Shown piece after piece: positions 1 to 8,119 of a stretch of DNA of 64,000 nt (position 1 is its first letter; each line of letters opens with the position of its first letter). The DNA comes from Escherichia coli (GTDB lineage: Bacteria > Pseudomonadota > Gammaproteobacteria > Enterobacterales > Enterobacteriaceae). The notes under the pieces are model-generated. The model had not been told where the DNA came from. It saw nothing but the letters and a program-made list of their open reading frames with translations, and made no database searches. The stretch lies in assembly GCF_009931435.1 (NCBI RefSeq), contig NZ_CP043414.1. The stretch is one strand, 5' to 3'. The position numbers and the translations under genes are program-made.

Positions 1-422
1 TCAATCACGCTCATCGCCGTGGCGGTTTTGCTTACCTGCGCCAGCGAGCGGTTTAGTTGTTGGAGGGGGAAAAGTCGCGGGTCGGGAAAGGCCGAGGCAA
101 ACGGAACTACCGACGGATCGCGACTGGCCTGCAACATATCAAAAATATAGGTGTTGATATCGACTGCTTCATCTCGAGTGACTGGAATGACTGTCGCTTT
201 CGGCATTTTTATTGCCTGTGGCGCAACGTAATAACCCGATTGCGGTCGCGCGATAATATATCCCTGACTTTCGAGCAACTGATAGGCATGGCTGACAGTC
301 ATAAAGCTCATGCCAGAAAGCGCCACCTGGTCACGCAACGAAGGCAAACGATCTCCGGGTTGCCAGATACCCGACGCAATCTGCTCGCGTAATTGTTCTG
401 CAAGCTGCTGGTATTTTTTCAT
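1..422 (-). CDS. ydcR: MocR/GntR-family regulator YdcR (HTH plus aminotransferase-like domain), N-terminal part; gene continues beyond window start
   Basis: Minus-strand translation from ATG at 422-420 reads MKKYQQLAEQLREQIASGIWQPGDRLPSLRDQVALSGMSFMTVSHAYQLLE..., a GntR-type winged HTH; no stop before position 1. Listed +strand ORF 57-392 is its antisense. Confidence 0.8.
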   Translation of the reverse strand, partial: MKKYQQLAEQLREQIASGIWQPGDRLPSLRDQVALSGMSFMTVSHAYQLLESQGYIIARPQSGYYVAPQAIKMPKATVIPVTRDEAVDINTYIFDMLQASRDPSVVPFASAFPDPRLFPLQQLNRSLAQVSKTATAMSVI

Positions 423-500
423 TATCGAATCGTTATTATGTGCAGGTGATTCGGCAGTCTATATCAGTTGTTAAAAATGACAACTTTTCATTAACTGTTA

Positions 501-626
<126 letters not shown>

Positions 627-835
627 GTACCCACAATAACACGAGGGGGTACAACAATGAACATCGGTAAAGCAATCATCAACTACGCAGCGCGTCGCAA
701 CATGGACATTACCTGATTGACGATGAGACCGTGGCGTTCTGGGAAGCGGATAACGATTGTGAATGGATGTTCTCCTACATGATTGGTAATGATGGTTTCC
801 TCCACTTTAAAGGCAATGTGTATCTGCTGTAGTGG

Positions 836-1656
<821 letters not shown>

Positions 1657-1700
1657 GTTGCATACAACGGCAACAGGAAACCGCGCCCTGAGTTTCTCAA

Positions 1701-2012
<312 letters not shown>

Positions 2013-2088
2013 AATGTCACCTGTTTTTGACTATGAGGCGATGATATCACCTCTATTCAGGTGGCCAAATTCAGTGTGCCACTACAGT

Positions 2089-2265
2089 ATGGCTAAGATG
2101 GAATCAGAGATTAAATCACTTAAAGCTGATAACGCCGCATTACGAAAGAGTTTAAAACTGATTGATGAGACTAATGCGGTTATGATGGATCATGTATTCC
2201 CTGAGTGGCGAAATGAAACTAAACCTACACAATATAAGAAACCTACACTTCGAGTGGTTGCATAA
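2089..2265 (+). CDS. Hypothetical 58-aa coiled-coil protein, possibly a gene fragment truncated by the adjacent IS
   Basis: ATG at 2089 directly abuts the IS end (2086) with no Shine-Dalgarno; reads MAKMESEIKSLKADNAALRKSLKLIDETNAVMMDHVFPEWRNETKPTQYKKPTLRVVA. The listed ORF 2014-2265 begins inside the IS terminus. Confidence 0.3.
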   Translation: MAKMESEIKSLKADNAALRKSLKLIDETNAVMMDHVFPEWRNETKPTQYKKPTLRVVA

Positions 2266-2269
2266 AAAA

Positions 2270-2296
2270 AGGGACTCCGAAGAGTCCCTAGTAAGT
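2270..2296 (-). terminator. Intrinsic terminator (minus strand)
   Basis: Hairpin GGGACTC-TTCG-GAGTCCC followed by a run of seven T on the minus strand. Confidence 0.65.
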
Positions 2297-2371
2297 TTAG
2301 GTTAGGTTTGCACAACAAAGATGAGGTTATAATGAACATAATGCTACATTATTCTTTAAAGCCAGAAAAAT

Positions 2372-2392
2372 AACCGCCCCGAAGGGCGGGAG
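2372..2392 (-). terminator. Intrinsic terminator (minus strand) downstream of the small membrane-protein genes
   Basis: Minus-strand hairpin CCGCCC-TTCG-GGGCGG followed by TTATTTTTCT. Confidence 0.6.
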
Positions 2393-2547
2393 GATTAATA
2401 CTCAATCTATACTTGTTATGTTTTTATGTTGTATAGATCACTGACTATGAAAACACTGTACTGGAGTGTGTTTTATGGCTTTTAATCGGGAATCCTCAAA
2501 GAAGATCCCCTGTTAATAACCATAAGGAGAAAAGGCAGATTACACTA

Positions 2548-2721
2548 TTATTTAGCATCCTTTTTACAGCAACTAAAAAGAATAAACAGGATTAAACATC
2601 CCCAGCCGTAAGGTGTACCAATTAGAAATTTGAAAAACACCACCATCGATATAAAAATCAATTTAATGCCAGCGACGATAGTCAAAAACAGCAGAGTAGC
2701 AAAGTAGACAAAAAGATCCAT
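2548..2721 (-). CDS. Small hydrophobic protein (57 aa, about two TM segments, basic C-terminus); not in ORF track (under 60 aa)
   Basis: Manual translation MDLFVYFATLLFLTIVAGIKLIFISMVVFFKFLIGTPYGWGCLILFILFSCCKKDAK; ATG 2721-2719, TAA stop 2550-2548; co-directional with upstream genes and followed by the terminator at 2372-2392. Confidence 0.45.
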   Translation of the reverse strand: MDLFVYFATLLFLTIVAGIKLIFISMVVFFKFLIGTPYGWGCLILFILFSCCKKDAK

Positions 2722-2770
2722 AGATAATCCTCTTTGAAAACGACCATCATCTATAGTTCAATTCATCGAT

Positions 2771-2953
2771 TTAATTAATGATACTTGAAAGCGTTACACA
2801 CAGCAGAAATGCCAATATGTGCCATGAATATACGATAGTTAATCCTACAGTAAGACAAATCAAAAATTCAACCATAGGTAAATCCTCAAATAAGAAAAAG
2901 GTTAGCGGGGGGTGATTCCCCCCGTAGACGTTGACCAGCTCAACATCTTTCAT
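2771..2953 (-). CDS. Small hydrophobic protein (60 aa, about two TM segments)
   Basis: ORF-track protein MKDVELVNVYGGNHPPLTFFLFEDLPMVEFLICLTVGLTIVYSWHILAFLLCVTLSSIIN; starts 21 nt after the stop of the Nu1-like gene. Confidence 0.5.
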   Translation of the reverse strand: MKDVELVNVYGGNHPPLTFFLFEDLPMVEFLICLTVGLTIVYSWHILAFLLCVTLSSIIN

Positions 2954-2973
2954 ACATTTATTTATAACGCGTT

Positions 2974-3525
2974 TTAAGACACATCAAATTCATCGTCTTC
3001 TTCTGGTTCTTGTTCCGGTTCATCCATTAATGGTAATTCTTCTTCCTCGTCTTCTCCCAAATCAGCATTTTCGAACAAGTCCCCTACTTCATTTAAACGA
3101 AGCTCGATGATCTCCCTTAGCTTATTCTTCAATGTTTTCTGATCAGTGGCGGATTCTAAAATTTCTAGGGCATCGATTGTGGCGATCTGCAAGATAGTCT
3201 GCTTCACCTTCCCACAATATTCAGCTAGTTCCTGTTCTACATACCCGACCGGAATCAGGAGATTCATTGCTTCCTGGTTCTCTCGTTCGGCTGCATCTGC
3301 TAATGCTCTCTCACGGCGTAATTTCTCTACGTCGATTTGTTCCTTGATAGAAGTTTCTTTAAGCGGGTTAATGATGTTCTTCAAGACCCAATCACACCCA
3401 GGCTTCGCCGGGACACGTCTTGTATTTGTGTTATAAGGTAGACCCCTTTCTAACCATTTCTTAGCGGCGTTAATTGTATAGCCGTATAAGCGGGAAATTT
3501 CTGTAAGGGTTAATTCTTCTTTCAT
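2974..3525 (-). CDS. Putative DNA-binding protein resembling phage terminase small subunit Nu1 (N-terminal winged HTH, acidic C-terminal tail); orphan, no large terminase nearby
   Basis: Translation MKEELTLTEISRLYGYTINAAKKWLERGLPYNT...EKLRRERALADAAERE...DEEEELPLMDEPEQEPEEDDEFDVS has the layout of lambda gpNu1 as recalled. Start set at the second ATG (3525) because a GGAGG lies about 9 nt upstream; the listed ORF begins at 3540. Confidence 0.55.
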   Translation of the reverse strand: MKEELTLTEISRLYGYTINAAKKWLERGLPYNTNTRRVPAKPGCDWVLKNIINPLKETSIKEQIDVEKLRRERALADAAERENQEAMNLLIPVGYVEQELAEYCGKVKQTILQIATIDALEILESATDQKTLKNKLREIIELRLNEVGDLFENADLGEDEEEELPLMDEPEQEPEEDDEFDVS

Positions 3526-3886
3526 CCGGTTATCCTCCATTAAATTTGCGTAAAATTATTTATCTGATCTACGCATTCAGGAGAGCGCCTAAAACGCTTT
3601 CTAACGACATGAAAGATCTAGGCGTGGAAAGGAATTGGCGGGTGTTAATAGTCGCGTAGCGACCGCGCTGGTGGGCTGCACTGCACCTGTTTTGAAATCT
3701 CACACGCACATCAAATACCGGGGTGCCGAAAACTCCCTTTATTTCATCCGCGGAACAGTACCTTTTTAATTTGTCAAGCATTAATTTCTTAATTTAATTA
3801 CTAAATCTCACCCCAATAATTGAAAAAATATCAAAAATCAATAAAGTAAGCATCTAAAAGTCAGTCCATACCAAAAGAGGTATAAA

Positions 3887-4666
3887 ATGAAAAACATTAT
3901 CGCTGCTATCGTGCTTTCTGCTACTGCTTTCGGTGCTGATGCTGCGTCCTTTGATTGCACTAAGGCTATAACCAAATCAGAGAAGTTTATTTGTGCTAAT
4001 GAGTCAATCTCCGCACTGGATTCTAAACTTCATGAAGTATATGTTAAGGCTGTTAAGATTGATCCGTCTCTTAAACAAGAGCAACGCAACTGGAATAAAA
4101 CTGTTCGTGATACAATGATCAATATCGGGCAGATTCAGCCACTGGAGGCTGTATACAACGCTCAAATCCAAAACTTGATGAATGTATTATCTAAAGAAGA
4201 AACCGCGTCAGAGAGCGTTACAGATGATTCTGCAAAGGTTGAAGAAGAACAACCGAAACAGGAAGAAGTAAAGAAACTGAATGTTACCGCGATTTACGCA
4301 TGTACTGCAAAATTTACATGGAAAGTTATCGATGGTGAGGAAACAGAAGCTGTAAAAGATTACTTATACGGAAACAAAGATCATGATGATAAAGGCGGTA
4401 AACTTAAAATCAAACTGGTAGATGATGTTCCTGTGTATTTTGTTTACACCGACAAATATAACGTTTATAAATCACCACTCAAACCAGCTAAAGAAAATCC
4501 AAACGCAATGGAGGGTAAATCCAAACAGGATACTATTGGACGTGTTAACACTTATAACATCTGGGTAAGCAAAAAAGGTGACATGCGTCTTGAAGTTATT
4601 GAACCAAAATATGATTCTGAATATAAACACACTCAATTTGCATGTGACATGGTAGACGCAGAGTAA
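3887..4666 (+). CDS. Secreted/periplasmic protein with N-terminal DUF1311 (LprI-like lysozyme-inhibitor fold) domain and an uncharacterised C-terminal domain
   Basis: Signal peptide MKNIIAAIVLSATAFGADA; motif FDCTKAITKSEKFICANESISALDSKLHEVY typical of DUF1311; acidic linker; Shine-Dalgarno AGAGG 8 nt upstream. Confidence 0.75.
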   Translation: MKNIIAAIVLSATAFGADAASFDCTKAITKSEKFICANESISALDSKLHEVYVKAVKIDPSLKQEQRNWNKTVRDTMINIGQIQPLEAVYNAQIQNLMNVLSKEETASESVTDDSAKVEEEQPKQEEVKKLNVTAIYACTAKFTWKVIDGEETEAVKDYLYGNKDHDDKGGKLKIKLVDDVPVYFVYTDKYNVYKSPLKPAKENPNAMEGKSKQDTIGRVNTYNIWVSKKGDMRLEVIEPKYDSEYKHTQFACDMVDAE

Positions 4667-5226
4667 GAGGTGAAATGATGCAATTCAATAGCATGAAGAT
4701 TACTCAAAAATGGTGGGATGCGATGAAAGCTAACCACCAGAACGATATTAATTAAGTAACATTTTAGATATACAGCACCCAGCTAACAGATCACCTTTTA
4801 TGGATTTCATTATAACCCCTTTGATCTGGAAACTATGTTAATTAGTTGATTTCTAAGCCTTGTCCTTGTGATGGGGCTTTTTATTGCAAAATTTTTAGTT
4901 ATTTTGGGTTGACTACATTCGGGTTGCCAATTCGCCTGGCTAACTCTTGCTGAGTGATTTCTGACTGTAAAAAAGCATTTAACAGCAATACCTTAGAGGC
5001 GACGCTCAAAGGCACTTCAATAAAGTGATCGTGACTATTTAATGGCGAAGTTTACCTCCGTGTGTAATGTGCTCGAAAATAGCACTAAATCGCCGCAACG
5101 GCAGAATGCAATGCAAAATCAGGAAGGAAGATTCCAGAATTTCTTTGCGCTAATTTGCAAAACTGAATAATAACCTCAAGAAACGATCGGCATCATAGCG
5201 GCAAAAGGTCAGAAAAAGGTGGCGGG

Positions 5227-5457
5227 ATGTTTTCGAAGGCGTTATCGGTTGTCTTATTAACGTGTGCACTGTTCTCAGGACAACTCATGGCAGGGCACAA
5301 AGGACATGAATTTATGTGGGTAAAGAATGTGGATCATCAGCTGCGTCATGAAGCGGACAGCGATGAATTGCGTGCCGTGGCGGAAGAGTCGGCGGAAGGT
5401 TTGCGCGAGCATTTTTACTGGCAAAAATCGCGCAAACCAGAAGCAGGACAGCATTGA
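5227..5457 (+). CDS. yncJ: Small secreted protein YncJ
   Basis: 76-aa ORF MFSKALSVVLLTCALFSGQLMAGHKGHEF...WQKSRKPEAGQH, near-identical to E. coli YncJ as recalled. Confidence 0.9.
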   Translation: MFSKALSVVLLTCALFSGQLMAGHKGHEFMWVKNVDHQLRHEADSDELRAVAEESAEGLREHFYWQKSRKPEAGQH

Positions 5458-5467
5458 GTCGTATGAT

Positions 5468-5497
5468 GCCGGATGCGGCGTGACGCCTTACCCGGCC
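5468..5497. repeat. REP (repetitive extragenic palindromic) element
   Basis: GCCGGATGCGGCGTGACGCCTTACCCGGCC between convergent yncJ and ydcP. Confidence 0.6.
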
Positions 5498-5548
5498 AAC
5501 AAGATCATGCAGACTCAATGAGCTGAGAATAACCTGAAAACCTGCGTT

Positions 5549-7552
5549 TTATCCTTTACGCTTCGGCAATGTTTTTAGCAGCTCATCCGGGCTTACGGAG
5601 GCGACAACACTCCCTGGTAACGGCATTTTAAGAATGTGATTTTTGATTTTGCCAATGACGTGCATCTCACATGGGCGACAATCGAACTTTAGCGTTAATA
5701 CTTCATCGCCATTAACCAGTTGCATTGGCGTCGCCTTCCAGCTTTTGATGTTACCTTTTGCCTGTTTCGGACACAGATTGAAGGCAAAGCGCAGACAATG
5801 CTTGGTGATCATTACCGGCACTTCCCCCTTCTCTTCATGCGCTTCATACGCCGCATCAATCAGTTGCACACCATAGCGATGATAAAATTCACGCGCTTTC
5901 TGGTTGTAAACGTTCGCGAGGAAACTCAAATGCGTTTGCGGATAAACCGGCGCAGGGTCAGCAACCGGTTTACGACTGCCGCGCTGATAACTGGCAAGAC
6001 GTGCAGCATCCAGCATGTCAACGGCTTCACGGCGGAACTGATTTAACAGACTGTTCGGTACAAACAGCGCACCAGGCAGGTTAATTTGCACATCGCGGGC
6101 GTAATAGATGGTTTGCCCCAGCTTAGCCAGACCATCTTTCAGGTTATTAAGCGCTTTTTCGGCGTTATTAGCTTCGTCGAATTGTCCATCCAGCGTATGC
6201 GTGACGCTGACGCCCTCTTCACTGGTCAGGGTCAGAATCAGTTGTTCCTGCCAGCCGCCCAGTTCAATGTCTACCGCTACGCGACGTTCGCTGGATGTTT
6301 TGGTCAACGCCTGCTGCCAGTTATGGTCCAGATTACGATTAAGCGGATGATGCGGACGAATTTTATGCAAATCCGCAGGCATCTCATTTGGCCAGACGCG
6401 GTACTGATTTTGCCCGGTTTTTTCGACTGTATTGGCGCGAAAGCCAACCACTTCACGTTTAATCATCACATTCAGACCATCGCCATTTGCTAACGGCTCG
6501 GTGACGGCAACATCAATATGATCTTTCGCTACTTTCAATACTTCGCCCACCGGCAGGCCAATGAATTTCGGTGAATCGAACGCGCCAATATCGCCTTTAC
6601 GCGCGTTAACAAAGTAGTCTGTGCTGCCTCGGTGGAAAGTCTTTTCCGTCGACGGGACAAAGAAATGTTCAGTACGACCTGATGACGCACGCGCCAGATC
6701 GCCACGTTCTTCAATAATGGCATCCAGCATCTGGCGATAATGTGCGGTGATATTCTTCACGTAACTCATATCTTTGTAACGCCCTTCAATCTTGAAGGAG
6801 CGCACGCCAGCATCAATCAGCGCGCCGAGGTTGGCAGTCTGATCGTTATCTTTCATCGACAGCAGATGTTTTTCATAGGAAACCACCCGCCCCTGATCGT
6901 CTTTCAATGTGTATGGCAAACGGCACGCCTGCGAGCAATCGCCACGGTTGGCGCTACGCCCTGTTTGCGCATGAGAAATGTAGCACTGACCCGAATAGGC
7001 CACGCACAATGCACCATGAATAAAGAATTCAATGGTCGCGTCCGTGGCCTGGTGAATCGCGCGGATCTGCTCAAGATTCAGCTCTCGCGCCAGCACAATC
7101 TGCGTAAAGCCAACATCAGAGAGGAACTTCGCTTTTTCTACTGTGCGAATATCGCACTGCGTACTGGCGTGCAGTTCAATCGGCGGAATATCAAGTTCCA
7201 GAATCCCCATATCCTGAACAATCAGCGCATCGACGCCGGTCTGGTAGAGGTCGGTAATCAGCCGTTGCGCAGGTTCCAGCTCATCATCATGCAAAATGGT
7301 GTTAAGCGTGACGAAAATTTTTGCACCATAACGATGGGCAAACGGCACCAGTTCGGCAATATCTTTCAGGCTATTACTGGCATTATGACGGGCACCAAAA
7401 CCAGGGCCGCCGATATAAACAGCATCGGCACCGTGCAAAATAGCTTCGCGGGCAATGGCGGCATCGCGTGCCGGGCTTAACAGTTCAAGTCGATGAGAAG
7501 ATACGGTCACATTCTTATCCAGTAGCTGAAAAATGGCGGCTATTTTAGCCAC
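5549..7552 (-). CDS. ydcP: Peptidase U32-family protein YdcP (RlhA)
   Basis: 667-aa ORF with U32 peptidase-like core; the true start may be a few codons inside the listed ORF. Confidence 0.85.
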   Translation of the reverse strand: MAKIAAIFQLLDKNVTVSSHRLELLSPARDAAIAREAILHGADAVYIGGPGFGARHNASNSLKDIAELVPFAHRYGAKIFVTLNTILHDDELEPAQRLITDLYQTGVDALIVQDMGILELDIPPIELHASTQCDIRTVEKAKFLSDVGFTQIVLARELNLEQIRAIHQATDATIEFFIHGALCVAYSGQCYISHAQTGRSANRGDCSQACRLPYTLKDDQGRVVSYEKHLLSMKDNDQTANLGALIDAGVRSFKIEGRYKDMSYVKNITAHYRQMLDAIIEERGDLARASSGRTEHFFVPSTEKTFHRGSTDYFVNARKGDIGAFDSPKFIGLPVGEVLKVAKDHIDVAVTEPLANGDGLNVMIKREVVGFRANTVEKTGQNQYRVWPNEMPADLHKIRPHHPLNRNLDHNWQQALTKTSSERRVAVDIELGGWQEQLILTLTSEEGVSVTHTLDGQFDEANNAEKALNNLKDGLAKLGQTIYYARDVQINLPGALFVPNSLLNQFRREAVDMLDAARLASYQRGSRKPVADPAPVYPQTHLSFLANVYNQKAREFYHRYGVQLIDAAYEAHEEKGEVPVMITKHCLRFAFNLCPKQAKGNIKSWKATPMQLVNGDEVLTLKFDCRPCEMHVIGKIKNHILKMPLPGSVVASVSPDELLKTLPKRKG

Positions 7553-7582
7553 AAGCGCGACGTTGCGAAATAGTTTTCCCGC

Positions 7583-8119
7583 TTAACTGCGTGGGTAATG
7601 GATGAGGGAATGAAAATGTACGATTTGCTCCCCACCATTACGATAGACATGCGTAACGTCTGCAGCAAATCGAGCGCCTTCTCCACAATTAAGGCTCTGC
7701 CATTCACCATCAACGCACAGATCAAGTTGCCCATCAATGACGACAACATGTTCGATTACTCCCTTCTCATGGGGCGTCGATTCACTTATTGCACCGGGAG
7801 CCATCTGAATTGAGAAGTGTTCAAAGCAGAGTTGCGGATCATAAGGAAACAGCGAAGTGATCACCATCGCCTGCTGTTGCGGATCATAAACTGAAGGCGT
7901 AGCGGACTGCGGCGGAGAAATAAATGTCGAAAATGGCACATTCAACCCGGTGGCAATTTTCCATAATGTCGCGACCGTCGGGCTGGACTCATTACGCTCA
8001 ATCTGCCCTAACATCGCTTTAGAAACCCCCGTCGCTTCTGCCAGTCGCGAAAGACTCCAGCCGCGCTGCTGACGCAGATGTTTAAGTGTAGTGGATAAAA
8101 AGCGAGTGAGATTTTCCAT
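7583..8119 (-). CDS. sutR: HTH-XRE plus cupin transcriptional regulator SutR (YdcN)
   Basis: 178-aa ORF with N-terminal XRE HTH (LRQQRGWSLSRLAEATGVSKAMLGQIERNESSPTVATLWKIATGL) and C-terminal cupin. Confidence 0.9.
   Translation of the reverse strand: MENLTRFLSTTLKHLRQQRGWSLSRLAEATGVSKAMLGQIERNESSPTVATLWKIATGLNVPFSTFISPPQSATPSVYDPQQQAMVITSLFPYDPQLCFEHFSIQMAPGAISESTPHEKGVIEHVVVIDGQLDLCVDGEWQSLNCGEGARFAADVTHVYRNGGEQIVHFHSLIHYPRS

Follow-up and report, generated by a model that had tools for sequence, protein, structure and literature searches.

The closest described counterparts of the element reported here are the tandem terminators of rrnB, the bidirectional terminators of convergent gene pairs and prophage RNAs that exist in two lengths. 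At convergent junctions, hairpin-dependent collision termination of the two polymerases has been described (bioRxiv 10.1101/2022.10.23.513370), and IsrK of the Salmonella Gifsy-1 prophage occurs as a short and a long isoform through partial read-through of a first terminator (PMC4825925). Here we analysed a stretch of 64,000 nucleotides (nt) of Escherichia coli DNA (NCBI RefSeq assembly GCF_009931435.1, contig NZ_CP043414.1; the window), in which two minus-strand hairpins, T1 and T2, stand at the edge of a prophage remnant. Upstream of them on the same strand are the gene for a terminase small subunit (TerS) and one or two genes for small membrane proteins; from the other side, a plus-strand operon converges on them. 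With moderate confidence, we interpret T1 and T2 as serial Rho-independent terminators that close this prophage unit with a ~290-nt folded untranslated tail.

Tandem hairpins at a convergent junction

Both a terminator scan and RNA folding place the proximal hairpin, T1, at 2374–2389 on the minus strand (CCGCCC-UUCG-GGGCGG, read from 2389 to 2374), where it is followed by the U-tract UUAUUUUUC (2365–2373). The distal hairpin, T2 (2270–2289; AGGGACUC-UUCG-GAGUCCCU, read from 2289 to 2270), was recovered by the scan, by folding and by a covariation count, and runs into seven uridines (2263–2269), the plus-strand complement of which is an A-run holding the TAA stop codon (2263–2265) of the converging open reading frame (ORF). 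The two are the top-ranked terminator-like sites in window positions 1–6000, a region in which the scan counted 13 of them, dinucleotide shuffles giving 5.1 ± 2.1, and they fold with −13.0 kcal/mol (T1; z-score −2.3) and −14.1 kcal/mol (T2; z-score −4.4). Their stems lie 84 nt apart, and both minus-strand loops are of the extra-stable C(UUCG)G type. The combination expected of an intrinsic terminator, a GC-rich stem-loop with a U-tract, is present at both sites (six GC pairs in T1, eight pairs in T2) and in 16 of 16 relatives. T1 begins 158 nt past position 2548, where the same-strand ORFs for TerS and the small membrane proteins end, and both hairpins show compensatory changes.

An earlier note on this DNA had described two minus-strand hairpins, at 2372–2392 and 2270–2296, each followed by a T-run and separated by about 75 nt with no credible ORF. 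Scan and folding bear out the hairpins, for which those limits were right if slightly too wide; 75 nt indeed separate the T1 U-tract from the T2 stem; and the spacer has no credible ORF of at least 30 amino acids (aa), although the plus strand does hold a 13-codon mini-ORF.

The two tracts differ in quality: that of T1 is interrupted by an A or a C in every lineage, while that of T2 is an unbroken run of five to seven uridines. Established terminator rules, applied to these sequences, suggest that T1 is a leaky first stop and T2 a tight second stop. The TAA codon of the plus-strand operon lies 4 nt from T2, within its A/U-run (0–11 nt in the relatives), and in all loci T2 sits between the stop codons of genes that converge on it. 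In four relatives (L065, L069, L070 and L071), T2 has the classic symmetric form of a two-way terminator, its hairpin being flanked by AAAA ... UUUUUU. The idea of a read-through barrier protecting a neighbouring gene remnant, raised in the earlier note, survives in this sense: the pair occupies the meeting point of the minus-strand unit and the plus-strand operon, and the remnant is what an IS3-family element has left of the operon's final gene, whose stop codon overlaps the T2 A-run. On these features, T1 and T2 are predicted to be genuine, conserved transcription stop signals, and tandem terminators placed where two operons converge are a known arrangement.

The block that contains them (2262–2555) is present in 62 of 5,426 complete E. 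coli genomes, where it is always chromosomal and never annotated. The untranslated stretch upstream of the terminators occurs in exactly the same 62 genomes, at 64 places, and always forms one unit with them. A further 25 prophage contigs from IMG/VR carry the block; a 26th match (L033) proved to be a chance match, and a gapped motif search of IMG/VR (AGCCA...TTTTCATAGT) was discarded as too unspecific after returning upwards of 120 chance matches. In alignments, the block is a conserved non-coding segment with exchangeable gene cassettes on either side and sharp junctions at 2262–2265 and 2555. Among E. coli copies the stems are kept and the loops vary: the T1 loop is UUCG, UUC, GAAA or GAAG, some of these being mutual inversions, and the T2 stem comes in two versions, set apart by a swap of C-G to G-C. 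The alternation of CGAAG and CUUCG in the T1 loop of near-identical copies, an apparent inversion, is a signature of template switching in a quasi-palindrome.

TerS homologues with 54–79% identity were found in Salmonella, Proteus columbae and other E. coli, with gene order and intergenic layout kept. In Salmonella, P. columbae and divergent E. coli (TerS 54–70% identical), the layout is preserved with different stem sequences. Across the relatives, T1 begins 147–189 nt past the stop codon of the membrane-protein gene, the stems of T1 and T2 lie 71–107 nt apart, and T2 abuts the converging gene. Five types of T1 stem (CCGCCC, CCGCCUC, CCCCUC in Proteus, CCCGUGG and CGGGGUA) and six types of T2 stem (GGGACUC, GGGAGUCUC, GGGACUCC, GGGCGAUCUC in Proteus, GGCCGACUCC and GGGGCUAUC) were distinguished. 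Single-sequence minimum free energy folds contain T2 in 16 of 16 relatives and T1 in 15 of them; in the remaining one, the T1 stem is shortened to 4 base pairs (bp). Conservation in related islands had been named in the earlier note as a way to judge the hairpins, and both are present in every relative examined, with compensatory as well as whole-stem changes.

Conservation extends beyond the stems. Over 11 E. coli loci, the mean pairwise difference is 0.31 at fourfold degenerate sites of TerS and 0.069 in the non-coding block. Within the block, diversity in the spacer between T1 and T2 is 0.021–0.064, and the spacer core (2297–2347), at 0.021, is the most conserved stretch of all. Spacer diversity is thus far below that of the TerS fourfold sites, which by this comparison marks the spacer as a segment under strong purifying selection rather than filler.

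Folding of the untranslated tail

Applied to 16 sequences read in the sense of TerS (the minus strand of the window), RNAalifold predicts T2 together with two helices upstream of T1. The first of these, H0 (2482–2516, minus strand), consists of GGGGAUCUUC UUU GAGGAUUCCC plus outer A-U pairs; changes on both sides are seen in 9 of its 14 pairs, pairing holds in 98.7% of cells and one U.G pair is invariant. The second, H2 (2405–2439, minus strand), is formed by GAUCUAUAC and GUAUAGAUU around an A-rich loop of 17 nt; here 7 of 9 pairs have changed on both sides, pairing holds in 100% of cells and one G.U pair is invariant. Between them, a weak A/U-rich helix, H1 (2450–2474, minus strand; AAAACAC ... 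GUGUUUU), was recognized by eye from alignments and was not formally counted. Over the 16 sequences, the covariation count found 97.4% of cells paired, compared with 35–57% when partner columns were slid, and 19 pairs that change on both sides, compared with 3–6 when slid; none of 500 shuffles matched the observed values.

The G.U pairs in these helices, of which two are invariant, become A.C mismatches on the opposite strand, and variant stems of T1 and T2 also use G.U pairs where the opposite strand would have C.A; selection has therefore acted on the minus-strand RNA. A DNA cruciform or a plus-strand transcript as the object of selection is excluded by these pairs, which by their strand specificity also make a DNA-level site such as cos or pac unlikely.

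Directly abutting the T1 stem on the minus strand is an anti-Shine-Dalgarno-like motif, AAUCCUC (2390–2396), which is kept while the T1 stem changes. It is the exact complement of GAGGAUU, the Shine-Dalgarno sequence plus flank that precedes both membrane-protein ORFs. A second pyrimidine-rich, anti-Shine-Dalgarno-like sequence, UUUUCUCCUUAUGG (2520–2533, minus strand), is also conserved in the untranslated tail.

A search of window positions 1–8000 against Rfam 15 (including GcvB, AgvB, IsrK and phage RNAs) gave no match with E ≤ 1 except for a sub-threshold match, outside the element, that resembles a repetitive extragenic palindrome (REP). The latter, to naRNA4 (29 bits against a gathering threshold of 59.5), lies at 5461–5497 on the minus strand between yncJ and rlhA. 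The intergenic regions of seven relatives had no Rfam match, and ARAGORN found no tRNA or transfer-messenger RNA in the region. As far as Rfam 15 shows, the ~290-nt RNA element would represent a new family.

The spacer (2290–2364, minus strand) contains, within its core, a GU-rich motif (CUCAUCUUUGUUGUGC, 2325–2310; CUCCUUUGUGUUGU elsewhere) that is kept in all lineages at 25–40 nt before T2. Its beginning can also pair with the RNA upstream of T1. In this candidate long-range helix, P-LR, the 3′ strand UGGCUUU (2358–2364, minus strand), directly past the T1 U-tract, meets the 5′ strand AAAGCCA (2476–2482, minus strand), just past H0. P-LR covaries between lineages (AGCCAG/CUGGCU, AGCCAUG/CAUGGCU, AAGCCAA/UUGGCUU and AGCAG/CUGCU, with AGUAGA/UCUACU in Proteus), and cognate pairs average −8.8 kcal/mol against −7.2 ± 0.55 kcal/mol for permuted partners (p = 0.002). 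Since P-LR can form only in RNA that has passed T1, read-through to T2 probably matters. Other ways of folding the spacer back, onto the upstream 3′ region or onto the ribosome-binding sites of the membrane-protein genes, gave duplexes no better than shuffles (z-scores −2.0 to +1.6), and of the fold-back pairing tests only the short AGCCA/UGGCU helix was retained.

Under the interpretation that we favour, the minus-strand unit would run from TerS through one or two small membrane-protein genes into the folded tail of ~290 nt, composed from 5′ to 3′ of H0, H1, H2, T1, the GU-rich linker and T2. A leaky T1 would release a short isoform, and polymerases passing T1 would halt at T2 and yield a long one. 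In the long isoform, the segment past T1 would pair back to the AGCCA after H0, leaving the GU-rich stretch exposed beside T2. Placed 0–11 nt past the converging stop codon, T2 would also mark the end of the plus-strand operon.

Alternative readings of the element

Several points weigh against this interpretation. We infer the 3′ ends, the termination efficiencies, the leakiness of T1, the existence of two isoforms and any role in trans from sequence. P-LR is short (5–7 bp), with a core (AGCCA/UGGCU) that is mostly invariant. In the window, the plus-strand tail of T2 is UAGUAAGU, with three uridines in eight positions, too few for a U-tract, and the scan lists no plus-strand site there, which leaves T2 a hairpin-only site in that direction; it would end the converging operon by its position, with doubtful efficiency, although collision termination of convergent polymerases could, by analogy, apply. 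The promoter of the minus-strand unit was not located. Just past the TerS stop codon, a further minus-strand hairpin (GGGGGG-AAUCA-CCCCCC, 2900–2925) is followed 7 nt later by UUUUUCUUAUUU, and given this delayed U-run TerS could perhaps not be co-transcribed with the rest. Finally, gene cassettes are swapped on both sides of the block, and L065 is a mosaic that joins a window-like 3′ region to a TerS of 54% identity, so recombinational spread may account for part of the block's conservation. As to the hairpin at 2900–2925, it may separate TerS from the membrane-protein genes; it lies inside a program-called ORF of 60 aa and recurs in Salmonella (L062) and in L069.

Among the alternatives, the one that survives best, although we regard it as unlikely, is an independent small RNA (sRNA) of ~55–70 nt, transcribed from a minus-strand promoter in the spacer and composed of the GU-rich seed, T2 and the U7 tail, with T1 serving only the upstream mRNA. 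In its favour, no part of the block is more conserved than the spacer core. Most lineages have a −10-like TAnAAn hexamer ahead of the GU-rich motif, and full promoter-like sites occur on the minus strand of distant lineages, among them TTTTCA-17-TAAAAT, TTCAAA-19-TATAAT and TTGTCA-19-TAAAAT. A long uninterrupted U-tail with an A/U-rich 5′ flank is typical of Hfq-binding sRNAs, and T2 has both. The GU motif of the spacer also shares words of 8–12 nt with the R1 seed of GcvB in 7 of 10 lineages, a property of 0–3% of background segments from the window, and GcvB itself was confirmed in the E. coli host (RF00022, 199 bits). In the window, however, that hexamer reads TATAAC and lacks a −35 box at 15–19 nt, and the minus strand has no recognizable promoter between T1 and T2. 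Promoter-like matches in this AT-rich DNA occur at chance level (11 against 13.0 ± 3.9 expected), and a single consistent promoter was dropped for either strand, as the sites vary by lineage and match no better than chance. The start of the spacer moreover pairs upstream of T1, which implies continuity with a longer RNA and fits a read-through isoform better than a separate gene, and Rfam holds no match for such an sRNA. The small independent transcript suggested in the earlier note consequently lacks support in the lineage of the window, where the spacer has no minus-strand promoter of its own and pairs across T1.

A function of the plus strand is more doubtful still. In this case, the complementary strand would give rise to an antisense RNA driven by TATAAT, or operon read-through would carry a translated mini-ORF; its CA-rich leader and Shine-Dalgarno sequence would imitate a target of GcvB, and the RNA would act as a decoy or, like the antisense RNAs of type I toxin-antitoxin systems, as a regulator of the membrane-protein mRNA. 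The plus strand does contain a perfect TATAAT, as the earlier note had stated for about position 2330; it lies at 2328–2333 within a promoter-like site, TTTGCA-15 nt-TATAAT (2307–2333, plus strand), the only passable candidate in the lineage of the window. The −10 hexamer is perfect in all copies of the E. coli group, even after a 9-nt repeat deletion, and two relatives, L005 and L004, have a better distance to TTTGCA, of 16 or 17 nt instead of 15 nt. The −35 hexamer itself matches consensus at four of six positions and, at 15 nt, was missed by a consensus scan; the site is absent from distant lineages, and no plus-strand terminator follows it.

The TATAAT also overlaps the start codon of the 13-codon mini-ORF (ORF 2331–2372; 2322–2372 with its GAGG Shine-Dalgarno; plus strand, MNIMLHYSLKPEK), which has the form GAGG-N5-ATG and is preceded by the CA-rich GCACAACAAAG. 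A Shine-Dalgarno sequence 4–10 nt ahead of an ATG is present on the plus strand in 10 of 10 lineages, compared with 2–10% of composition-matched shuffles, and the CA-rich run directly 5′ of it is the complement of the GU-rich motif. The adjacent genes encode small hydrophobic proteins. In a comparison with type I toxin-antitoxin loci, the hydrophobic ORFs measure 34 and 57 aa, but relatives have a three-pass protein of 94 aa instead, and the candidate antisense promoter is weak and lineage-specific. Against a plus-strand function, every covarying helix contains G.U pairs, which are possible on the minus strand only. A conserved peptide gene was rejected, as the peptides (5–13 aa in most lineages), reading frames and stop codons of the mini-ORF differ between lineages and even within E. 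coli; the Shine-Dalgarno-ATG pattern could equally well mirror an anti-ribosome-binding-site element on the minus-strand RNA. Whole-duplex energies between GcvB R1 and the plus-strand spacer are unexceptional against the window background, and both sequences are of low complexity; pairing judged by whole-duplex energy was dropped, the shared-word statistic alone stands, and neither AgvB nor GcvB was matched in Rfam.

Least probable is that the hairpins act as insulators alone, stopping transcription from both sides, and that the rest is functionless and conserved through frequent homologous recombination at a mosaic joint between exchangeable gene cassettes. The different cassettes that abut the block at sharp junctions and the mosaic L065 fit this idea; recombination explains neither the compensatory changes in H0, H2, T1 and T2 with their invariant G.U pairs nor a layout kept in Proteus despite quite different sequence.

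Prophage setting and known systems

The first 5 kb of the window are the remnant of a ~35-kb prophage integrated in hicB, fragments of which remain at ~502–621 and 4921–5049. An intact prophage of ~35 kb occupies the same hicB site in E. coli H2 (NZ_CP028733); among its genes are those for a large serine recombinase, for lysis, tail, capsid and portal proteins and for a gpA-type large terminase. In the window the prophage has been cut down to ~4.3 kb, and an IS3-family element with a frameshifted transposase (837–2086, minus strand; transposase 837–2013, element end near 2086) has taken the place of the rest of the prophage, standing where ~30 kb were deleted. Next to it lies the truncated remnant of a gene for an 80-aa coiled-coil protein (2087–2265, plus strand), the last of the three genes in the converging operon. 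In the intact prophage, ~6 kb of oppositely oriented genes separate TerS from the gene for the gpA-type large terminase. Upstream of the converging operon, intact relatives have a gene-free gap of 1.3–1.5 kb (41384–42650 in L012, E. coli H2; 6882–8251 in L062; 6400–7856 in L064); this conserved gap, deleted in the window, may be an origin, a large RNA or a regulatory region.

On the minus strand, the unit contains a gene for a 57-aa two-pass hydrophobic protein that is unannotated in RefSeq (2548–2721), a gene for a 34-aa hydrophobic protein (2771–2875), which starts within the 60-aa ORF behind a GAGGA Shine-Dalgarno sequence, and the TerS gene (2974–3540), assigned through phrog_57 (E = 4 × 10^−13) and annotated as such in one RefSeq relative. 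The membrane-protein slot is filled in all relatives by proteins of 32–95 aa, among them a three-pass protein of 94 aa and others of 74 and 32 aa. At the prophage edge beside hicB, a gene of the LprI family (lysozyme inhibitor; 3887–4666, plus strand) is swapped for other small genes in relatives and so behaves as an exchangeable cargo cassette. Neither the neighbouring small proteins nor the converging operon had a match in Pfam, PHROGs, NCBIfam or PADLOC. Among 50,697 phage records, the DNA of positions 2014–3600 matched only through the end of the insertion sequence and the TerS protein had no tblastn match; a scan of genome contigs with a TerS profile yielded no relative.

As a terminator pair, the element is of a textbook kind and insulates two converging prophage operons from each other. 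Less ordinary is the long RNA element to which it belongs, which covaries, lacks annotation and shows more conservation than the surrounding protein genes. Should the long isoform exist and work in trans, this would be another case of a prophage rewiring the post-transcriptional control of its host; otherwise, it would still illustrate termination in two graded steps, at a leaky T1 and then at a tight T2, with a spacer under selection.

Like rrnB T1-T2, the pair sets two GC-rich hairpins, each with its U-tract, one after the other on a single strand. With the bidirectional terminators of convergent gene pairs (bioRxiv 10.1101/2022.10.23.513370), it shares a distal hairpin that also serves the converging operon and has A-run and U-run flanks. 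In contrast to both, the spacer here is more constrained than the loops and pairs upstream, and the plus-strand U-tract of T2 in the window is degenerate. Phage morons (PMC3594210) are likewise small accessory prophage genes with their own terminator that are swapped as cassettes, and the genes around the element behave in a similar way; the conserved part here, however, is an untranslated tail and not a gene.

The tail also resembles 3′ untranslated region-derived, Hfq-dependent sRNAs, which combine a conserved, single-stranded GU-rich stretch with a long U-tail terminator at the end of an mRNA; here, the conserved GU motif, predicted to be single-stranded, lies beside T2 with its five to seven uridines. 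GcvB and the prophage-encoded AgvB, which is reportedly an anti-sRNA (Tree et al. 2014), are not homologous to the block and gave no Rfam match. The complementary (plus) strand of the spacer does resemble a GcvB target, with a CA-rich element that directly precedes a Shine-Dalgarno sequence. It is conceivable, if rather unlikely, that the element is an undescribed phage RNA family of ~290 nt with a helix across T1 and with short and long forms, in which the GcvB R1-like seed of the long form, exposed beside an Hfq-type terminator, regulates CA-rich host mRNAs in trans (such as those of amino-acid and peptide transporters), or the complementary strand serves as a decoy for GcvB.

For read-through isoforms in a prophage, IsrK offers the nearest functional analogy. 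Both would be prophage RNAs with two isoforms (predicted here), a small upstream ORF and alternative structures (PMC4825925). They have no relationship in sequence or in Rfam, and their positions differ: the RNA described here lies 3′ of membrane-protein genes, and IsrK lies upstream of an antiterminator gene.

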